A stretch of DNA of 11,456 nucleotides from a virus (lineage: Duplodnaviria; Heunggongvirae; Uroviricota; Caudoviricetes). The stretch is from positions 1-11,456 of the IMG/VR virus record IMGVR_UViG_2648501669_000018. The stretch is one strand, 5' to 3'. The notes beneath the pieces were generated by a model. It was not told the DNA's origin, made no database searches, and worked only from the letters and a program-made list of their open reading frames with translations. Made by a program: the position numbers and the translations under genes. Shown here piece by piece: positions 1-11,456 of the stretch. Numbering within the stretch: position 1 is the first letter of the stretch; each line of letters opens with the position of its first letter.

Positions 1-34
1 AAATATAGGGGCAAATCCAGAAAGTTCACCAGCC

Positions 35-77
35 AACCGCAGCACGTTCTTGCATACGACGTGCTGCGGTTTTCTTT
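35..77 (+). terminator. Rho-independent terminator (perfect 11-bp stem + T-run) ending an upstream plus-strand transcript
   Basis: Stem 37-47 ccgcagcacgt pairs perfectly with 59-69 acgtgctgcgg (11-nt loop), followed directly by ttttcttt at 70-77. A degenerate copy of the same ~40-bp module sits exactly 2700 bp downstream at 2731-2770. Confidence 0.6.
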
Positions 78-228
78 ATGATTTATGCACAATGGACAAT
101 TTGAAATTATTGATGATTGTATGGTGCATCGTTTTCTGAACCTACACTGATTTTTTGGTATAGCCTTGCCTAGCCAGTCTTACCGGATCAAACTCTTCGC
201 TATTGCAATACTAACCAAAATCATCAAT

Positions 229-257
229 TTGACAGCGATTAACCAGAATAATAGTAT
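229..257 (+). promoter_or_regulatory. Candidate sigma70 promoter for the diguanylate cyclase gene
   Basis: TTGACA at 229-234 (consensus -35), 17-bp spacer, TAGTAT at 252-257 (-10-like), in an AT-rich leader about 70 bp upstream of the ATG at 330. Motif match only. Confidence 0.3.
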
Positions 258-329
258 ACTATCACCAGTAAGAAATTATCGTTATTTGTAGCGATACATA
301 TTATATATATATCATTCTCAGGTGCGTAC

Positions 330-1661
330 ATGATTATCAAGCAGGTACCTATAAAAATAAAAATCTTCATCTTTTTATTTTCATGCATCTCTATTATATT
401 TTTGTTACTGCATGAAAATAATGGAATATACATAACACAAACAACACAAATAAGTTATAGTGTTTTCATTATTGGGCTTTTTTTCATAAACCTGATGATT
501 TTTATTTTTCTATTGCTTTACTATGTTTCTAATCAGAGACAAAGTTATCTCTTAATTCTTTCATTCGCGTTTTTGAGCAACACGTATTATTTATTAGAAG
601 TGGCTATTATTTCTTTATCTCCGTTAGGTAACGATTTATCTACAATCTATCAGAAATCAAATGATATCGCAATATATTATCTATTCCGTCAGTTCAGCTT
701 TATATCTATAATCTTTCTGGCTGTTTATTCCACCAATGTTAAAAATAAAAGTGTTTTAGAAGATAAAAGAAACATAATAATTGTTGTTTTGTCAATATTA
801 ATTCTTTTTATTACTCCGTTTGTAGCAAAAAATCTAAGCAGTGACAATATAAAATATAGTCTTAATATTATACAATACTCGCTGAATCGTCATTTGTCGA
901 CGTGGAATATCGTGTACACCAAAATAATATCAGTATTTTGGCTTGTATTACTTATCAGCTCATGCATCAGCATACGTAATTACTCAAAAATATGGTTGTG
1001 TATAATACTTATTAGTATAGTGTCAGTATGCAATAATCTAATTTTATTGTATTTTATTGATAAATCCCATCCTGCATGGTACATGACAAAATTTCTTGAA
1101 TTGATATCAATGATTTATATCATTTCAACACTCATGTATTATGTTTTCAGGAAATTAAATCATGCTAATCATATGGCAATTCATGATCCACTAACGAATA
1201 CATACAATAGAAGATACTTTATTGACTCATTGAAGAATATATCAAAACACCATGATTTCTCAGTAATAATGTTAGATATTGACAATTTCAAAAGCATCAA
1301 TGACAAATGGGGGCATCATATGGGTGATCAAGTCATAGTAATGGTTACCAGAATAATAAAAAAATCCATCAGGAAAGAGGATATATTAGGGCGCTTAGGC
1401 GGTGAGGAGTTCGGTATTATCATTAAAGGTAATACTCAAAAGCTCTTGCTATCAATTGCAGAGCGAATCAGAAAAAACATTGAAGAGCAATGCTCGGAAA
1501 AATTATTATCGCATGGACCTGAGAAAATAACTGTCAGTATTGGTTGCTTTACTTCAAAAGAGAATAATCTCAGTCCATCTGAAATGTTAGTCAATGCCGA
1601 TAAAGCGTTATATCAAGCCAAAAGAACCGGAAAAAACAAGGTGATAACTCACTCAAAATAA
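330..1661 (+). CDS. Membrane-anchored GGDEF-domain diguanylate cyclase (c-di-GMP synthase); possibly the prophage-associated dgcX
   Basis: 443-aa ORF with SD-like AGGTG at 319-323, 6 nt before the ATG. N-terminal ~270 aa is very hydrophobic with multiple predicted TM helices. C-terminus is a canonical GGDEF domain: DPLTNTYNRRYF, MLDIDNFKSINDKWGHHMGD (Asp at the base-specifying position, so GTP/c-di-GMP type), active site GGEEF, and an RxxD I-site (RKED) 5 residues upstream of GGEEF. The gene is strikingly AT-rich compared with the flanking tail genes, indicating foreign origin. Confidence 0.9.
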   Translation: MIIKQVPIKIKIFIFLFSCISIIFLLLHENNGIYITQTTQISYSVFIIGLFFINLMIFIFLLLYYVSNQRQSYLLILSFAFLSNTYYLLEVAIISLSPLGNDLSTIYQKSNDIAIYYLFRQFSFISIIFLAVYSTNVKNKSVLEDKRNIIIVVLSILILFITPFVAKNLSSDNIKYSLNIIQYSLNRHLSTWNIVYTKIISVFWLVLLISSCISIRNYSKIWLCIILISIVSVCNNLILLYFIDKSHPAWYMTKFLELISMIYIISTLMYYVFRKLNHANHMAIHDPLTNTYNRRYFIDSLKNISKHHDFSVIMLDIDNFKSINDKWGHHMGDQVIVMVTRIIKKSIRKEDILGRLGGEEFGIIIKGNTQKLLLSIAERIRKNIEEQCSEKLLSHGPEKITVSIGCFTSKENNLSPSEMLVNADKALYQAKRTGKNKVITHSK

Positions 1662-1690
1662 ACACCTTTTTAAAATACAGCCCCAATAAA

Positions 1691-1723
1691 CTGCAGAATA
1701 TTATCCCATATAATATCCTGCAG
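1691..1723. terminator. Imperfect inverted repeat between convergent genes; possible weak bidirectional terminator
   Basis: ctgcagaatatta (1691-1703) and taatatcctgcag (1711-1723) form a 13-bp stem with one mismatch. It lies between the cyclase stop (1661) and the tfa-relic stop (1735). On the minus strand it is followed by TTTATT. The stem is AT-rich and so of low stability. Confidence 0.25.
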
Positions 1724-1734
1724 TTCGTAATGCA

Positions 1735-2004
1735 CTATTCGATAATGGGTCCTGTTGGCCATTCAATATCCGGTGCAGTTGTTGTATTAACACGGTTCAG
1801 CAACACCCGATACTTCTTCCAGGCTTCCAGCAACGAGTTTTCTTCCTCCGTTGCGATCTCCAGATCTACAGCATCCTGAAGTGGCGCAATATGCTCACTG
1901 AATTCCTGGATGTAGAACTATGTGGTGACGGTCTTCCAGCCATTCGGCTCCTGCTGTATCGAAGCATACCAGGCTATTTCAATATCGCTATGCTGCGGCA
2001 GCAT
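1735..2004 (-). pseudogene. tfa: Tail fibre assembly (tfa) gene remnant, 3' portion with in-frame TAG
   Basis: Minus-strand translation gives ...[54 protein letters not shown], matching the C-terminus of lambda-type Tfa as I recall it. The 60-codon block (1738-1917) has no start codon and is preceded by an in-frame TAG (1918-1920). A short ATG-initiated stretch (from 2004) upstream is in the same frame. It is about 90% identical at nucleotide level to the second copy at 2806-2915. Confidence 0.7.
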
Positions 2005-2012
2005 TTAACCCC

Positions 2013-2041
2013 TTGTAATTCATCACCATAATTGATTTAAT
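2013..2041 (+). promoter_or_regulatory. Candidate sigma70 promoter (extended -10) for the methyltransferase gene
   Basis: TTGTAA at 2013-2018, 17-bp spacer, TGaTTTAAT at 2033-2041 (TGn extended -10 plus TTTAAT). The ATG at 2061 lacks a clear Shine-Dalgarno, so the transcript may have a very short leader. Confidence 0.25.
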
Positions 2042-2060
2042 TCACAAACAAAACTATAAC

Positions 2061-2729
2061 ATGGTGAAATTAATGAAAAAAAACACAGATGATGGGGCTA
2101 AAATTTACACACCACTTACCCTAAAGCTTTATGACTGGTGGGTTTTGGGAGTATCAAATCGGCTTGCATGGGGATGTCCTACAAAGGAACACCTTCTTCC
2201 ACACTTTCTGGAACATTTAGGTAACAACCATCTGGATATTGGTGTTGGAACTGGGTTTTACCTTACTCACGTACCTGAGAGTAGTCTGATATCTTTAATG
2301 GATTTGAACGAAGCTAGCCTGAACGCGGCATCTACAAGGGCTGGGGAATCAAAAATTAAACATAAAATTAGCCATGATGTTTTTGAACCTTATCCCGCGG
2401 CGTTACATGGTCAATTTGATTCCATTTCCATGTTTTACCTTCTTCACTGCCTGCCTGGAAATATATCTACAAAAAGCTGTGTAATACGCAATGCGGCGCA
2501 GGCCTTAACTGACGATGGAACTCTATACGGAGCCACAATTCTTGGCGATGGAGTTGTGCACAATAGCTTCGGTCAAAAACTGATGCGCATTTACAATCAG
2601 AAAGGCATCTTTTCAAACACAAAAGATTCCGAAGAAGGCTTAACACATATACTCTCAGAGCATTTCGAGAATGTTAAAACCAAGGTTCAAGGTACTGTAG
2701 TAATGTTTTCCGCTTCAGGGAAAAAATAG
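2061..2729 (+). CDS. Putative class I SAM-dependent methyltransferase (cargo gene, substrate unknown)
   Basis: 222-aa ORF. Motif I-like glycine-rich loop LDIGVGTGFY, followed by an acidic motif (ISLMDLNE) and a hydrophobic FDSISMFYLLHCLPG stretch, consistent with a Rossmann-fold methyltransferase. No convincing SD; an alternative start is the ATG at 2073 (MKKNTDD). Intermediate AT content and orientation opposite to the tail genes. Confidence 0.5.
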   Translation: MVKLMKKNTDDGAKIYTPLTLKLYDWWVLGVSNRLAWGCPTKEHLLPHFLEHLGNNHLDIGVGTGFYLTHVPESSLISLMDLNEASLNAASTRAGESKIKHKISHDVFEPYPAALHGQFDSISMFYLLHCLPGNISTKSCVIRNAAQALTDDGTLYGATILGDGVVHNSFGQKLMRIYNQKGIFSNTKDSEEGLTHILSEHFENVKTKVQGTVVMFSASGKK

Positions 2730-2730
2730 C

Positions 2731-2770
2731 ATCCAACCGCAGCTCGCTCTTGCTTAAGACGTGCTGCGGC
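2731..2770 (+). repeat. Degenerate second copy of the terminator hairpin module seen at 31-70
   Basis: atccaaccgcagctcgctcttgcttaagacgtgctgcggc aligns base-for-base with 31-70. The stem is reduced to 7 bp plus 2 and the T-run is replaced by cataatcc. It starts 2 nt after the methyltransferase stop. Confidence 0.6.
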
Positions 2771-2783
2771 ATAATCCCAATGA

Positions 2784-2966
2784 TTACTCCCTGACAGGGT
2801 TCGTAGGCCACTCAATATCAGGTGCAGTTGATGTATCAACACGGTTCAGCAACACCCGATACTTCTTCCAGACTTCCAGCAACAAGGTTTCTTCCTCCGT
2901 TGCGATTTCCAGCTCAACAACAGTCTGAACGTACCAGGAACAGCCTCCTTCAGGGCTTGAAGGATA
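2784..2966 (-). pseudogene. tfa: Tail fibre assembly (tfa) remnant (C-terminal 60 codons, no start codon)
   Basis: Minus-strand translation, immediately after and in frame with the stf TGA: [60 protein letters not shown]. No ATG/GTG/TTG start. An orphan strong SD (GAAGGAGG, minus strand, about 2941-2948) is followed by no start codon, consistent with a destroyed tfa initiation region. Confidence 0.7.
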
Positions 2967-5900
2967 TCAATGTTCGCTTCCTGTTAACTGCCCGACAAGT
3001 GCAACCAGTTCGCTTACCTGATTTTCCAGAGTGGTGATCCGGGTGCCTGCTGTTGCCAGATTTTCACGTAACGTTGTATTTTCCTCTTCCAGCGCGGTAA
3101 CGCGATCATCTGTTTCACGGGCGACCTGAACAAGTAACCCCGTCACGGCGGAGTAGTCAACATTAAGATAGCGAGTTTCTTCGCGTAGCTCGTTGCCGTC
3201 AACGGTCGGACCTTGCAACTCTTCACCATAATGAGTAAACGATCCCACAGCTTCAGGTATCGCCTCCATTACTTCCTGTGCAATAACGCCAGCATAAGGC
3301 ATTCCGTTTTCCTTGAGCGTGTAGGTGTACCCGTTCATTTTACGGATTGCTTTCGTAGCGTCGCTGATAACGCGAATATCGTCTTTAAGGTCGCGGTCTG
3401 ATGACTGATTCAGCGTTGTGCAATTAATAGCGCCATTTACATCAAACAACTGGCCTGCTGATGTTTTTTGCGCATAAAACAGATACGCAGCAGACGTTCC
3501 AACCTCAAAAACGTTTTGTCGATCACTTGATCCCCATACTTTTGCGGCAAATGATAGTTCTGTATTACCTAAGTTCTGTAAAACAAAACGATTTCCAGTC
3601 CCTGTTTGTTTTGTAAGAGTTAAATCAACAGTTGAGTTAACCTCATCCTTGTTGATAGTGAGCGCCTGTGCTTTAGCCCCGTTAACAGCACCTGTTTTGA
3701 GTTGAACCGCGCCGTCATTACCATTTAACAGTATCTCAGCTCCGCTAAAGAAATTTTTTAGCGACAGCATCTTACTTACGCCGACTGATGAACCCAACGC
3801 CCACGCGAGAGAATTACCGGTGCTATCAAACCCACGTACAAAGCAATCCATTTTGCTATAGTCTGACGTGCTTCCAAGGACATCAATTCGCCCTCCGCCA
3901 GATTTTACCGGGTTAGATGTGGTTAATGACCTGACAGCAAGATCGGTAGATGAATTGAGATCGTCTACTGTTAGTAATTTCTTCCATTCCTGCGTCGTTC
4001 CATTTTCAATTGTTCTTCCCCAAAAACCGGAATTGCGGCCTCCGAACTGCACAGCATAATTTTTACTAAATTGAACATGAATGCCGCCAAGAACCATAGA
4101 ACCTGCCGGGCCGTTTGTACTGCCTGCAATTGGTATAAATTTATTAATGTTATCAGTATGCTGCGTGTTCCAGTCTCGTCCTGTTTTTGTAAGCAGTCCT
4201 AATGTCGTGTCGAGCGCTTCGGTTAAAGTAAGGTTTTTAAATTTAACTGCGCTACTTTCGCCAAGACTTAAGTTGTTTCGCGCATCTTCTACTGTTGTCG
4301 CACCTGTACCTCCTTGCCCAACAGCTAATGGCAACCAGCCAGTGCCATTATGACAACCCCACAAACCAGATTTGGAAACCTGTAAGCGTGGTGCGCCTGA
4401 AGAATACGTAGAATATACGTAAGTTGTTTCTTTTCCCTCTTCAACCCTTTCTGTTGATACATCTCTCTTCCATTCAGACCAGGTACCGCTTCCTCCTTCA
4501 TATATTCGTCTATAAGTAATTCCCGGATTATTATAAGGGTAGTACACCTGAACGCAGGAAGAAGCAGTGTTGGCTCTCGTTTGGAGCACTATTAAAGCGC
4601 CCGCCAGACCGATTGGGTAATTTAATTCTTCTGTTGCGTAAGCGCTCGTTGGTTGTTGATAGAAACCAGAATATTCACCGGTAAGGGTGTTTAGGTCAGT
4701 ATTAGCAAGGCCAGCTTTTTGCTCATACATTACCCGCAAGTTCGCACGTGCTTGCTCGATAGTTCTTCCACCAGTACCGCCCTGGGCTAAACCTAACGGA
4801 GACCATTGTCCAGAAGAAGAATCATAAACTCCCCAACTCCCGTTAGTATGGATTTCAAAGAAACGATCACCAGTTGGACCATACATACGAGTTGTTGATT
4901 CATTTTGACCAAAGCGGCTTAATTCATCTCTGCGGGTATGACGTATCCATTGCGGGCCAGAACTTTGGCTGTAAATGTACGAATACAATGATTTTGTATC
5001 TGAACCAACAAATAGACCGGAATATCTTTTTGTTGACACTTCTGATCTAACTATATAACCAGAAATAAGATTATCACCGGCACTAGACGCTACTGATGGA
5101 TAACCTTTCGCTGAGATGTAAATCCTGACAAATCCAATATAACCTGATGGCTCAACAGAGATATCAGTGCAGGTCATGGCAACTTCACCAAGACCGATAT
5201 TATCGCCAACAATTACTTGCGCCTGGTTGCGATAATTAAGTGCGTCCGCCGCAGATTTCGCCGCGTTTGTTTCACTGGATTTAGCATTAGTTTCGCTGGC
5301 TTTAGCGTTGGTTTCGCTGCTCTTTGCTGCTGCCTCGCTATTTTTCGCGTTGGTTTCTGATTTTTTGGCTGCTGTCGCGGAGTTTGCCGATGCAGTTTGT
5401 GAGTCTGCTGCCGCCTGTGCGCTGTTATCCGCATTCGTCTCAGACGTTTTTGCGGCCTTCGCGGAATTTCCTGCCGCCGTTGCCGAGGAAGCTGCACTAC
5501 TGGCACTTGATGATGCGTTCGTTTCTGATGATTTCGCTGCCTCTTTTGAGGCCGCCGCATCCCGGGCTGAGGTGGCAGCTTCTGACGCTTTCGTGGTCGC
5601 GGTGGATGCAGAAGTGGCTGCTGATTGTTGTGATGCTGCGGCATTCGTTTCTGACGTTTTCGCCGCACCGGCACTGGTGGCTGCCGCGCTTTTTGAGGAC
5701 TCTGCAGCGGCAGCACTTTTTGATGCTTCAGTAGCCTTTGTTGATGCCGTTCCTGCGCTGGAAGACGCTGACTGAGCCGACGTCGCGGCCTGCCCGGCTG
5801 ATGTGCTGGCTGCACGTGCTGAGCCTGTAGCATCAGTCGCATGGGTTGCCGCCTCACGGGCTGATGTGCTGGCATCGCTGGCTGACTTCTTCGCGGCTGC

Positions 5901-6272
5901 CGTGTTCTGTGCCACTGCGGACGCGTTACGCGCCACCTCTTCCACCATCAGTTCAAAGCGGCGCAGTGCCTCCGGACGGGCATCATCCTCCGTCATGGCA
6001 CCGAGAAAATCATTCAGCGTACCCGGTTGTGAGTCTTCATACACGGTGATGGTCCCGGCATGCGATGGCGGGAAGCCTTCCACCAACAGAATAACGCTGT
6101 ACTGACCGTACTCAACATCCATGCTGTAACGCCCGGCTTCATCCGGATTTTCAGATGCCACCGTGTTCACCACCACCGTGGTGCTGTTACGTTTTGCTTT
6201 CAGCTGGATTGTGCAGTTCTGTACCGGTTTACCTGCACCGTCTTTCAGTACACCTGAAATCTTTACTGCCAT
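2967..6272 (-). CDS. stf: Side tail fibre protein (lambda Stf-like N-terminus; C-terminal intramolecular chaperone domain)
   Basis: The N-terminus MAVKISGVLKDGAGKPVQNCTIQLKAKRNSTTVVVNTVASENPDEAGRYSMDVEYGQYSV... closely matches lambda Stf as I recall it. The ORF track starts at a GTG (6278); the ATG at 6272 (MAVKIS) is the likelier start. It contains a long Ala/Ser/Thr-rich repeat region, two GQGGTG fibre-repeat motifs and a C-terminal S74-type chaperone domain. Stop TGA at 2967-2969. Confidence 0.9.
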   Translation of the reverse strand: MAVKISGVLKDGAGKPVQNCTIQLKAKRNSTTVVVNTVASENPDEAGRYSMDVEYGQYSVILLVEGFPPSHAGTITVYEDSQPGTLNDFLGAMTEDDARPEALRRFELMVEEVARNASAVAQNTAAAKKSASDASTSAREAATHATDATGSARAASTSAGQAATSAQSASSSAGTASTKATEASKSAAAAESSKSAAATSAGAAKTSETNAAASQQSAATSASTATTKASEAATSARDAAASKEAAKSSETNASSSASSAASSATAAGNSAKAAKTSETNADNSAQAAADSQTASANSATAAKKSETNAKNSEAAAKSSETNAKASETNAKSSETNAAKSAADALNYRNQAQVIVGDNIGLGEVAMTCTDISVEPSGYIGFVRIYISAKGYPSVASSAGDNLISGYIVRSEVSTKRYSGLFVGSDTKSLYSYIYSQSSGPQWIRHTRRDELSRFGQNESTTRMYGPTGDRFFEIHTNGSWGVYDSSSGQWSPLGLAQGGTGGRTIEQARANLRVMYEQKAGLANTDLNTLTGEYSGFYQQPTSAYATEELNYPIGLAGALIVLQTRANTASSCVQVYYPYNNPGITYRRIYEGGSGTWSEWKRDVSTERVEEGKETTYVYSTYSSGAPRLQVSKSGLWGCHNGTGWLPLAVGQGGTGATTVEDARNNLSLGESSAVKFKNLTLTEALDTTLGLLTKTGRDWNTQHTDNINKFIPIAGSTNGPAGSMVLGGIHVQFSKNYAVQFGGRNSGFWGRTIENGTTQEWKKLLTVDDLNSSTDLAVRSLTTSNPVKSGGGRIDVLGSTSDYSKMDCFVRGFDSTGNSLAWALGSSVGVSKMLSLKNFFSGAEILLNGNDGAVQLKTGAVNGAKAQALTINKDEVNSTVDLTLTKQTGTGNRFVLQNLGNTELSFAAKVWGSSDRQNVFEVGTSAAYLFYAQKTSAGQLFDVNGAINCTTLNQSSDRDLKDDIRVISDATKAIRKMNGYTYTLKENGMPYAGVIAQEVMEAIPEAVGSFTHYGEELQGPTVDGNELREETRYLNVDYSAVTGLLVQVARETDDRVTALEEENTTLRENLATAGTRITTLENQVSELVALVGQLTGSEH
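2970..3401 (-). other. C-terminal intramolecular chaperone / auto-processing domain (peptidase S74-like) of the tail fibre
   Basis: Last ~144 aa: SDRDLKDDIRVISDATKAIRKMNGYTYTLKENG...GVIAQEVMEAIPEAV...coiled-coil tail. This matches the hallmark S-D-x-x-L-K cleavage motif and the GYxY / IAQE core of chaperone domains in endosialidase and T5 L-shaped fibre proteins (recalled from family knowledge). Confidence 0.7.
5216..5906 (-). repeat. Low-complexity Ala/Ser/Thr-rich repeat region inside stf (K-S/T-SETNA-type repeats)
   Basis: Protein segment of about residues 125-355 is almost entirely A/S/T/K/E with reiterated ...KSSETNA... units. The DNA shows reiterated gcgttggtttcgct-like units. This compositional bias creates several spurious overlapping ORFs on both strands. 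Confidence 0.75.
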
Positions 6273-6283
6273 ATTCACCCCAC

Positions 6284-6309
6284 AAAAAAGCCCGCCTGAA
6301 CCGGCGGGC
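6284..6309 (-). terminator. Rho-independent terminator downstream of lom (minus strand)
   Basis: Minus strand reads AGCCCGCC-ggttca-GGCGGGCT followed by TTTTTT (plus-strand aaaaaa at 6284-6289). The stf start codon lies only about 12 nt beyond the T-run. Confidence 0.6.
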
Positions 6310-6336
6310 TGTCATAACACTGTGTTACCTGGCTAA

Positions 6337-6936
6337 TCAGAATTTATAACCGACACCCATGATGAAACCGTCAGTGCGCCAGTCACCACTGCCGGAGCCT
6401 TCATAAGCAATATCAATGGCCACCGATTCGGTCGGGTTAAACTGCACGCCAGCTCCCCACGCCAGAGACGTGTTACTGTGGCGAGCGTCATCACTTCCGG
6501 TCAGCACATCGTGCGTTTTCCCCTTGTTGTCAGTTACGCGGAGATAATCCCCGGAGAAAGTCGACACACGGCTGTAAGCCACACCCGCCATCGCATACGC
6601 GCTGAACCATTCATTCACGCGTACAGACGGCCCCGCCATCACGCTGAACCAGCGGTTACGAACGGAGTCTTCATGCCAGCGGGTATCGCTGTAACGGGTC
6701 AGCTGGCGATTCTTGTCTCCTGCATAGCTGAATGACGTCACCAGCCCCAGTGTGTCCGTAAACTCATAACGGTATTTCACGTTAATCCCGTTAAGATCAT
6801 CGCTGCCGGGAACGTTCGTCGAGGCATGAAGATAGCCCGCGCTCAGCGTGGACTGATGTTCAGACGCCCATGCAGGCGCACCGGATACGGCCAGACAGAT
6901 GGCTGCGGACAAAATGGCGGCATAAAGTTTACGCAT
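6337..6936 (-). CDS. lom: Lom-family (Ail/Lom/PagC) outer membrane beta-barrel protein
   Basis: 199 aa with signal peptide MRKLYAAILSAAICLAVSGAPAWA. The core GINVKYRYE and the C-terminal AIDIAYEGSGSGDWRTDGFIMGVGYKF closely match lambda Lom as recalled. SD GAGAGG 6 nt upstream of the ATG. Position between J and stf is as in lambda. Confidence 0.9.
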   Translation of the reverse strand: MRKLYAAILSAAICLAVSGAPAWASEHQSTLSAGYLHASTNVPGSDDLNGINVKYRYEFTDTLGLVTSFSYAGDKNRQLTRYSDTRWHEDSVRNRWFSVMAGPSVRVNEWFSAYAMAGVAYSRVSTFSGDYLRVTDNKGKTHDVLTGSDDARHSNTSLAWGAGVQFNPTESVAIDIAYEGSGSGDWRTDGFIMGVGYKF

Positions 6937-6958
6937 AATTACCTCTCGCTTTTCTGCA

Positions 6959-6984
6959 ATAAAAAAGGCGTCATTTCTGACGCC
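6959..6984 (-). terminator. Rho-independent terminator between J and lom (minus strand)
   Basis: Minus strand: GGCGTCA-gaaa-TGACGCC followed by TTTTTTAT, located 19 nt after the J stop (7003-7005) and just upstream of the lom SD. Confidence 0.6.
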
Positions 6985-7002
6985 CGTTCTGGGTTATAAA
7001 AT

Positions 7003-10404
<3,402 letters not shown>

Positions 10405-10461
10405 TCACGCTCCATAAACGACAAAACCGCCCGCAGGCGGTTTCACATAAAACATTTTTCA

Positions 10462-11133
10462 TCAGCGACCAATCACCACAACCTGACCACCATCACCTTC
10501 ATCTGCCGTGCTGATCTCCTGAGAAACCACCCGCGACCCCACGCGCATTTCACCGTACAGAACAGGCAAAACATTGCCCTGGGCAACCATGTTATCCAGT
10601 GAGGAGAAATAGGTGTTCTGCTTACCGTTATCCGTTGTCTGTGTACGGGGAGTTCTGGCTTTCGGTGCCAGCATCTGCGCCACACCACCGAGCACCATAC
10701 TGGCACCGAGAGAAAACAGGATGCCGGTCATACCACCGGCCCCAATGGCTGCCCCCCATGCTGCAAGGGTGGCTCCGGCGGTAAAGAATGATCCGGCAAT
10801 GGCGGCAGCCCCCAGGACAATCTGGAATACGCCACCTGACTTGGCCCCGGCGACTCTGGGAACAATATGAATCACAGCGCCATCAGGCAGAGTCTCATGT
10901 AACTGCGCCGTTAACCCGGACGTGCTGACGTCCCGCCCGGCAATCCGTACCTGATACCAGCCGTCGCTCAGTTTCTGACGAAACGCCGGGAGCTGTGTGG
11001 CCAGTGCCCGGATGGCTTCAGCCCCCGTTTTCACACGAAGGTCGATGCGGCGACCAAATCGTTGTAAATCCCCGTAAAGGCAGATGCGCGCCATGCCCGG
11101 TGACGCCAGAGGGAGTGTGTGCGTCGCTGCCAT
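10462..11133 (-). CDS. I: Tail tip assembly protein I
   Basis: 223 aa starting MAATHTLPLASPGMARICLYGDLQRFGRR..., with a Gly/Ala-rich hydrophobic centre, matching lambda I in sequence and length. SD GAGAGG upstream. The 60-nt gap to J and ~103-nt overlap with K are as in lambda. Confidence 0.93.
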   Translation of the reverse strand: MAATHTLPLASPGMARICLYGDLQRFGRRIDLRVKTGAEAIRALATQLPAFRQKLSDGWYQVRIAGRDVSTSGLTAQLHETLPDGAVIHIVPRVAGAKSGGVFQIVLGAAAIAGSFFTAGATLAAWGAAIGAGGMTGILFSLGASMVLGGVAQMLAPKARTPRTQTTDNGKQNTYFSSLDNMVAQGNVLPVLYGEMRVGSRVVSQEISTADEGDGGQVVVIGR

Positions 11134-11456
11134 TTGTCTGTATACCTCTCTCGTTTGCTCAGTTGTTCAGGAATATGGTGCAGCAGCTCGCCATCACCAC
11201 AGTAAATGGCGGCATGATTCGGCACCGATGAACCAAAACAGCACAGCAGCACATCGCCCGGTTGTGCTGATGACAACGGCACCTGATACAGCCCTGTGGC
11301 CTCCAGATTATCCAGATAGAGATTCTGGCCGTTACGCCACCAGTCATCCTCACGATGAAAGTCCGGCATCTCAATCCCCGCCAGATGATAAGCATCCCGG
11401 AACAGTGTGTAACAGTCCGTCACACCGTGCTCAAAGCGCCGCCCGGTGAGATGCGG
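11031..11456 (-). CDS. K: Tail assembly protein K, 5'-truncated by the window edge (NlpC/P60-like C-terminal part)
   Basis: The reading frame stays open to the window end (...PHLTGRRFEHG-VTDCYTLFRDAYHLAGIEMPDF...). The track's start at 11423 is an internal GTG, not the true start. Contains a Cys...His motif typical of NlpC/P60-type tail assembly proteins. Overlaps I as in lambda. Confidence 0.85.
   Translation of the reverse strand, partial: PHLTGRRFEHGVTDCYTLFRDAYHLAGIEMPDFHREDDWWRNGQNLYLDNLEATGLYQVPLSSAQPGDVLLCCFGSSVPNHAAIYCGDGELLHHIPEQLSKRERYTDKWQRRTHSLWRHRAWRASAFTGIYNDLVAASTFV

Follow-up and report, generated by a model that had tools for sequence, protein, structure and literature searches.

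A putative S-adenosylmethionine-dependent methyltransferase carried as lambdoid prophage cargo, the intact form of the K-12 ybcY pseudogene

The 11,456-nucleotide (nt) stretch of Caudoviricetes DNA analysed here (hereafter the window; positions 1 to 11,456 of IMG/VR record IMGVR_UViG_2648501669_000018) carries on its plus strand, at 2061-2729, a gene whose product is predicted to be a soluble cytoplasmic class I Rossmann-fold S-adenosylmethionine (SAM)-dependent methyltransferase of the UbiE/Methyltransf_11-12 type. Judged by sequence comparison, this gene is the intact allele of the ybcY pseudogene of E. coli K-12. It lies in a cassette of about 1 kb that is antisense to the tail genes and constitutes a moron, and it probably encodes a stand-alone methyltransferase of the small-molecule or lipid type that would be expressed in the lysogen. 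The gene is already known, being annotated in RefSeq, grouped in PHROG and present as a pseudogene in K-12, and is not peculiar to this prophage; nothing reported below is categorically new, and the use of the analysis lies in bringing together the facts on a highly prevalent orphan enzyme.

A preliminary description of this DNA had proposed a Rossmann-type methyltransferase-like open reading frame (ORF) with an LDIGVGTGFY glycine loop, and both the Pfam profile search and structure prediction agree with it. The loop occupies residues 58-67 of the 222-amino-acid (aa) product, and the SAM motifs comprise LDIGVGTG (residues 58-65), D81 and H105-D106. Residues D59, G61, G63, G65, D81 and H105-D106 are invariant in an alignment of 46 homologues, so that the GxGxG of motif I following beta-1, the acidic residue that ends beta-2 and that of motif III are all present. 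Four Pfam models scored above their gathering cut-offs: Methyltransf_12 (37.6 vs 30), Methyltransf_23 (28.8 vs 27), Methyltransf_25 (27.7 vs 27) and Methyltransf_11 (24.6 vs 21.2). The AlphaFold2 model built from the 46-sequence alignment is confident (predicted local distance difference test score 90.3, predicted template-modelling score 0.87) and displays a canonical seven-strand sheet with the C-terminal beta-hairpin and flanking helices that characterise class I enzymes; a methyltransferase fold was thus found by profile and by model alike. Beyond this core, the model has helices 18-36 and 41-52 as N-terminal caps and, following beta-5, an inserted helical segment (169-180), and many invariant residues of the 46-sequence alignment are also located in the N-terminal helices, in the loop that follows beta-4 and in the beta-5 insertion. 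The SAM-binding motifs and approximately 55 further positions are invariant across these homologues, whose identity goes down to 56%.

The annotated coding sequence (2061-2729, ATG start, 222 aa), which falls inside the interval 2013-2770 assigned to the gene in the preliminary description, does exist as an ORF, but its product is probably only 218 aa long, the annotated start being four codons too far 5'. The real start is probably the ATG at 2073, since the homologues and the PHROG 2132 profile begin at residue 5 and a Shine-Dalgarno-like GGTGA (2063-2067, plus strand, read from the sequence) precedes this codon by 5 nt. The Met5 column is invariant, with 46/46 aligned homologues starting there, and the PHROG 2132 profile (218 positions) spans residues 5-222 with an E-value of 8e-157. 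No Shine-Dalgarno-like sequence was seen in the sequence upstream of the ATG at 2061. The ORF is far beyond what chance would provide, given the Pfam matches above gathering cut-offs, 2296 homologues and a ratio of nonsynonymous to synonymous substitution rates (dN/dS) of about 0.1. This ratio was 0.10-0.12 against the orthologues of Citrobacter, Enterobacter and Klebsiella, at a dS near saturation.

The invariant SAM residues, the low dN/dS, the neutral isoelectric point (pI 6.9-7.2, net charge ~0), and the lack of a hydrophobic segment and of a DPPY/NPPY or PC motif support, on sequence grounds, a soluble enzyme that is active and has a small, specific substrate, rather than a DNA methyltransferase. 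No transmembrane or hydrophobic segment, no extra domain and no RNA-binding extension was found in the protein, nor do its 218 aa hold a (D/N/S)PP(Y/F/W) motif IV, a PC motif or a target-recognition domain. The argument made in the preliminary description against a typical DNA methyltransferase, namely small size and no target-recognition features, is therefore upheld by the absence of both the catalytic motif and the recognition domain. The location in a prophage accessory region and a faint match to the PADLOC-DB model mad2 (E 0.0033, 14.3 bits), the only one among the defence models, could be taken to point to a DNA methyltransferase or to a component of a system for anti-restriction or for defence against phages. 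With these motifs and this domain missing, no conserved partner genes beside it and structural neighbours that are not DNA methyltransferases, such a role is extremely improbable; the mad2 match does not amount to membership, and a defence system was rejected as no real PADLOC match was obtained.

No NCBIfam equivalog was approached, the best scores being 15-17 bits against cut-offs of 175-390, and membership of UbiE/COQ5, UbiG or RquA is not indicated, with no match to Ubie_methyltran and 16.9 bits against a cut-off of 175 for RquA. Among solved structures the top sequence-profile match was juvenile hormone acid O-methyltransferase (JHAMT; PDB 7ebs/7ec0; E 4e-5, SAM core), and UbiG (PDB 4kdr/5dpm) was matched over the SAM-binding core with an E-value of 2e-3. 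Both share with the window protein an 'F(Y/T)LLH' motif after beta-4, but the likeness is confined to the core (profile positions 41-141 for JHAMT and 50-163 for UbiG), leaving the lids that determine the substrate unaligned. The best Foldseek match of the model, over 222 aligned columns (gaps included), was PmtA, the R-type bacterial phosphatidylethanolamine (PE) N-methyltransferase (PDB 8ys9), which is of similar size (~207-222 aa) and in which N-terminal helices likewise cap the SAM site. Tyr16, Tyr24 and His129 are invariant in the 46 homologues, and might conceivably include counterparts of the active-site residues Tyr10, Ser120 and His147 of Rt-PmtA.

These likenesses raise the more specific case of a PmtA- or PMT-like phospholipid or phospho-base N-methyltransferase acting on PE or a related amine, for which the structural match speaks. 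Identity to PmtA is only 15%, however, and the NCBIfam model NF045882, whose cut-off is 390 bits, gave 15.6 bits (E 0.01); this match is limited to residues 56-130, the SAM core, and falls short of membership. The Foldseek list is moreover flat, JHAMT and polyketide C-methyltransferases lying within an approximately 100-fold E-value of the best match. Methylated PE is not known to be made by the hosts of the family, although many strains of Salmonella, Klebsiella, Enterobacter and Proteus have intact homologues. To our knowledge, the lipids of Salmonella are PE, phosphatidylglycerol and cardiolipin, with no methylated PE. Those of E. coli are PE, phosphatidylglycerol and cardiolipin as well, again without methylated PE (PMC8590670), and where this paper speaks of 'endogenous' methylated phospholipids in E. 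coli, its subject is LplT/Aas uptake of lysophosphatidylcholine and not a methyltransferase. The PmtA-like case is accordingly very unlikely. By analogy with PmtA one might further envisage lysogenic conversion by methylation of an abundant host component, such as the PE head-group or another amine metabolite, an idea to which we give a slim chance; should it be true, a host component would be modified by the enzyme that is the most widespread of those still uncharacterised in E. coli prophages, and this would have been overlooked through the lesion in K-12.

Two further substrate classes were weighed. The enzyme might methylate tRNA or rRNA, so as to alter translation in the lysogen or to resist a toxin that targets the ribosome or tRNA. 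We consider this rather unlikely in view of the pI of 6.9-7.2 with a net charge of about 0, the missing RNA-binding extension, the absence of any match to an NCBIfam RNA-methyltransferase model, and the fact that the best matches, both by sequence and by Foldseek, are small-molecule or lipid enzymes. Alternatively, its target might be a protein of the host or of the phage. A generic class I fold allows for such a function, and protein methyltransferases are found among stand-alone genes of this size; the Pfam and NCBIfam searches nevertheless matched no curated protein-methyltransferase family, the NPPY of HemK/PrmC-type enzymes is absent, and the closed, highly conserved aromatic and polar lid suggested by the alignment would fit a small ligand, so that we regard a protein substrate as quite unlikely.

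In the reading that we favour, a stand-alone methyltransferase of small-molecule or lipid type, SAM would be bound by the GxGxG loop (residues 59-65), D81 and D106, and a small substrate would be held in a highly conserved pocket. The N-terminal part of this pocket would be formed by Trp-rich helices (Y24-D25-W26-W27, N33, W37 and C39), and its further parts by H129-C130 of the post-beta-4 loop and by N168, Y178-N179, F184, N186 and D189 of the post-beta-5 insertion. The methyl group would pass by SN2 transfer to an O, N or S atom of the substrate, most likely a small metabolite, a xenobiotic or a lipid head-group and not DNA, and the enzyme would act without a partner protein. That the substrate is a small molecule is what we infer from the features listed above.

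The DNA of the gene is identical to that of the strain MB53 gene encoding RefSeq protein WP_000239881.1, its product is identical to this protein, and O157:H7 carries the accession in its annotation too. No difference separates the window protein from the members of PHROG 2132, a family without an assigned function. The K-12 copy, located in prophage DLP12, is annotated as a pseudogene, a 'class I SAM-dependent methyltransferase' with a frameshift, which we take to be ybcY. It shows 99.3% nucleotide identity over the whole gene and, as in the window, has a tfa relic on either side within a lambdoid prophage remnant, where appY and ompT adjoin it. The identification as ybcY is consistent with the ybcY/tfaX spacer named in a genomic SELEX (systematic evolution of ligands by exponential enrichment) study (PMC3946193). 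The window copy is intact, whereas that of K-12 has lost 2 nt, equivalent to window positions 2075-2076 (~6013 of K-12 locus L002). This deletion takes the G of the ATG at 2073, the start used by all homologues, and shifts the frame relative to the ATG at 2061; the remaining K-12 frame is fully open, with only two amino-acid changes (K14R and F125S). A possible K-12 paralogue, YmfD of the e14 prophage, showed no detectable similarity (BLASTP E = 14), and paralogy with the e14 pair ymfD-ymfE, a methyltransferase and a membrane protein, was rejected (BLASTP E 14 and 1.5). No functional study was found in the literature on ybcY and its RefSeq protein. A K-12 ybcY mutant behaved as the wild type in a Hha-toxicity assay (PMC2408971).

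At a threshold of at least 95% identity, 3832 of 5426 complete E. coli genomes (~70%) carry the gene, in one to four copies each, and 3288 records hold it at 99% identity or more. The whole stretch from one tfa relic to the other was found in 2727 of 3837 gene-carrying records, and the cassette is also present in O157:H7 and ST131. The gene is also found in inducible lambdoid phages. Fifteen phage records hold it, among them ev243, 2G7b and the PhiR series, which include phage genomes of 45-50 kb deposited as complete; in ev243 it has the tail genes on one side and a tfa relic on the other, after which come an alpha/beta hydrolase gene, ompT and the integrase gene. The gene could in principle be a decaying, functionless passenger that hitch-hikes between tfa homology arms, as the pseudogene in K-12, truncated variants among the protein clusters and the absence of a reported phenotype might suggest. 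This is very improbable in the face of an identical or nearly identical intact ORF in thousands of genomes, including those 3288 records, of a dN/dS of about 0.1 with catalytic motifs invariant across genera, and of its retention in phage genomes deposited as complete. Disruption in related genomes, which the preliminary description had named as grounds for doubting the gene, applies to the K-12 copy, while the ORF is intact in most relatives.

The gene thus encodes one of the cargo enzymes that E. coli prophages carry most often, is under purifying selection and belongs to a stand-alone family; it escaped study because the K-12 copy lost its start codon through the 2-nt deletion. Its substrate, once found, would provide a function for several thousand entries labelled 'class I SAM-dependent methyltransferase', and would also reveal what benefit lambdoid prophages draw from carrying the gene. 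As a separate observation, short contigs from metagenome bins labelled 'Bacillus sp.' and 'Planococcaceae bacterium' (L021 and L030) carry the gene at 100% identity, most likely as a result of E. coli contamination.

Upstream of the methyltransferase gene and on the same strand, a gene of 29.6% GC at 330-1661 (+) encodes a diguanylate cyclase with MASE4 and GGDEF domains (Pfam). The published description of DgcX mentions eight transmembrane helices, similarity to YcdT, and a position at the lambda attachment site attB, always beside lambdoid prophage DNA (PMC4287979). The cyclase of the window matches this description and appears to be DgcX-like; in strain MB53 it directly adjoins ybhB, at the lambda attachment region. 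A role of the methyltransferase alongside this cyclase, suggested in the preliminary description together with a check of co-occurrence, did not survive that check: the methyltransferase gene occurs in 3832 of the complete E. coli genomes, the cyclase in 771 of 5426, and a query spanning both was covered to at least 80% in only 190, and functional coupling was therefore rejected. The two genes are independent acquisitions, since few genomes hold them contiguously and the cassette stands elsewhere beside quite different cargo. In K-12 its neighbours are appY and ompT. In O157:H7 strain PV15-279 (L100, 1832-8379) an identical methyltransferase gene has on one side an alpha/beta hydrolase (494 aa) and ompT, and on the other a general-stress protein, two ferritin-like proteins and a manganese catalase, in a degraded prophage with an IS1203 insertion; in ST131 the cassette lies beside an invertible tail-fibre segment at the trp locus. 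The enzyme would accordingly be expected to act independently of the DgcX-like cyclase.

Beyond E. coli, a profile search of 1.84 billion cluster representatives returned 1745 proteins at E <=1e-3 and 420 at E <=1e-30, mostly of 215-230 aa. The family has members in Enterobacterales, Pasteurellaceae, the Pseudomonas syringae group, Xanthomonadales, Oxalobacteraceae, Acidobacteria and lichen-forming fungi. In a collection of species-representative genomes, 270 matched stretches encode a relative. Throughout the contexts examined, with neighbours clustered in 72 loci, the gene is monocistronic or has genus-specific neighbours only. A census by Pfam family covered 131 flanking proteins (39 loci) and gave 133 families, each present in three proteins at most. 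The idea of a conserved gene cluster or operon partner was therefore rejected, synteny being restricted to single genera, and an early impression of an association with efflux and redox-detoxification genes (MatE, RND, EamA, AhpC and ADH_zinc) failed the same census. The lack of a conserved neighbour family suggests that the enzyme works without a dedicated partner. Domain fusions in distant relatives gave no clue to function either: a single additional domain could be identified, an RCC1-like one of a fungal protein, and other extensions had no Pfam match.

Two of these genus-specific contexts may be described. In the P. syringae group (L072, 3700-6556, and 12 other Pseudomonas loci) the homologue lies in a conserved same-strand run of DUF6388, methyltransferase, an enoyl-CoA hydratase/crotonase-family gene and CorA, with a 7-nt gap between the gene for the small acidic DUF6388 protein and that for the methyltransferase; this synteny was seen in Pseudomonas only. 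In Citrobacter meridianamericanus (L027, 2922-7941) the chromosomal orthologue has a CZB-GGDEF (DgcZ-like) gene on one side and on the other a Peptidase_M3/SDR pair, presumably dcp and ydfG. This second instance of a GGDEF neighbour looks coincidental in the light of the Pfam census.

Expression in the lysogen, which we infer, would proceed from the gene's own AT-rich sigma-70-type promoter and apart from the phage late operon. The extended -10-like promoter of the preliminary description is present as a motif, TGATTTAAT at 2033-2041, 17 nt downstream of a TTGTAA at 2013-2018, and together they form a candidate sigma-70 promoter (TTGTAA-17-TTTAAT with a TG extended -10; 2013-2041, plus strand) by consensus match only. 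The short extended -10 motif is, however, no rarer than chance, occurring three times in the window vs 0.95 expected, and a generic promoter scan gave no enrichment (2 sites vs 2.7 expected). An overlapping candidate, TTGATT-17-TATAAC (2032-2060, plus strand; hexamers at 2032-2037 and 2055-2060), has the same hexamers as those published for K-12 ybcY. Genomic SELEX with the RNA polymerase holoenzyme identified TTGATT-17-TATAAC as a constitutive RpoD promoter for that gene, and the same study flags H-NS in the K-12 ybcY/tfaX spacer (PMC3946193); H-NS would probably damp the methyltransferase promoter. The promoter scan proposed a third candidate, TTAACC-16-CATAAT (2005-2032, plus strand). A scan for intrinsic terminators found none around the gene.

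The cassette itself is delimited by two relics of tfa on the minus strand, and the placement of the gene between them, as first described, is borne out by Pfam Caudo_TAP matches on both sides and by truncated tfa calls in RefSeq. The left relic (1735-1911; 58 codons, without N-terminus) matches positions 77-130 of 131 of the model (E 3e-24), and the right one (2784-2918; 44 codons) positions 90-130 of 131 (E 6e-19); each encodes part of the Tfa C-terminus. In the RefSeq annotation of strain MB53, which is 100% identical to window 1662-3000, both are listed as truncated tail fiber assembly pseudogenes. They form a 127-nt direct repeat (1754-1880 and 2803-2929) with 89% identity between the copies, which lie 1049 nt apart and bracket the methyltransferase gene. 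Through these tfa-derived repeats the cassette shares homology with tfa genes in other lambdoid prophages, and recombination there may spread the cassette and so explain its presence in many different prophages.

The status of cargo, or moron, given to the gene earlier is upheld by its GC content of 40.8%, compared with 55.9% for J, by its orientation antisense to the tail genes, by the tfa relics and repeats at its flanks, and by the recurrence of the same cassette in varied prophages. Also as first described, it is read in the same direction as the GGDEF gene and opposite to the tail fibre gene (2967-6278), lom (6337-6936) and J (7003-10401), all on the minus strand. It resembles in this respect the lambdoid morons found 3' of tail-fibre genes (lom and bor of lambda, DgcX, and ompT and appY in DLP12), which are of low GC content, independently transcribed, and located between att and the tail fibre genes, where they run antisense to the late operon or stand outside it. 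It differs from them in encoding a cytoplasmic enzyme instead of an envelope protein or regulator, and in being bracketed by tfa-derived direct repeats.

Several minor features adjoin the cassette. RefSeq lists a truncated 'hypothetical protein' pseudogene at window 1891-1986 (+), just 5' of the methyltransferase gene and on the same strand, and some other genomes have a DinI-family gene annotated within their matched stretch, which takes in the sequence 5' of the methyltransferase gene. A small antisense ORF at 2687-2842 (-), which overlaps the 3' end of the methyltransferase gene and has a K-12 counterpart (L002, 6612-6749, -), is labelled 'nucleocapsid protein' (WP_071592174.1) in K-12 and 'hypothetical protein' elsewhere in RefSeq, and looks like a spurious gene call. 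The tail fibre encoded at 2967-6278 combines a phage_tail_N domain with a C-terminal Peptidase_S74 self-chaperone domain and is not followed by an intact tfa, which would explain why tfa survives only as relics. In strain MB53 the tail fibre gene is annotated as 303 nt longer (3615 vs 3312 nt), a difference presumed to sit in the Ala/Ser-rich repeat region.
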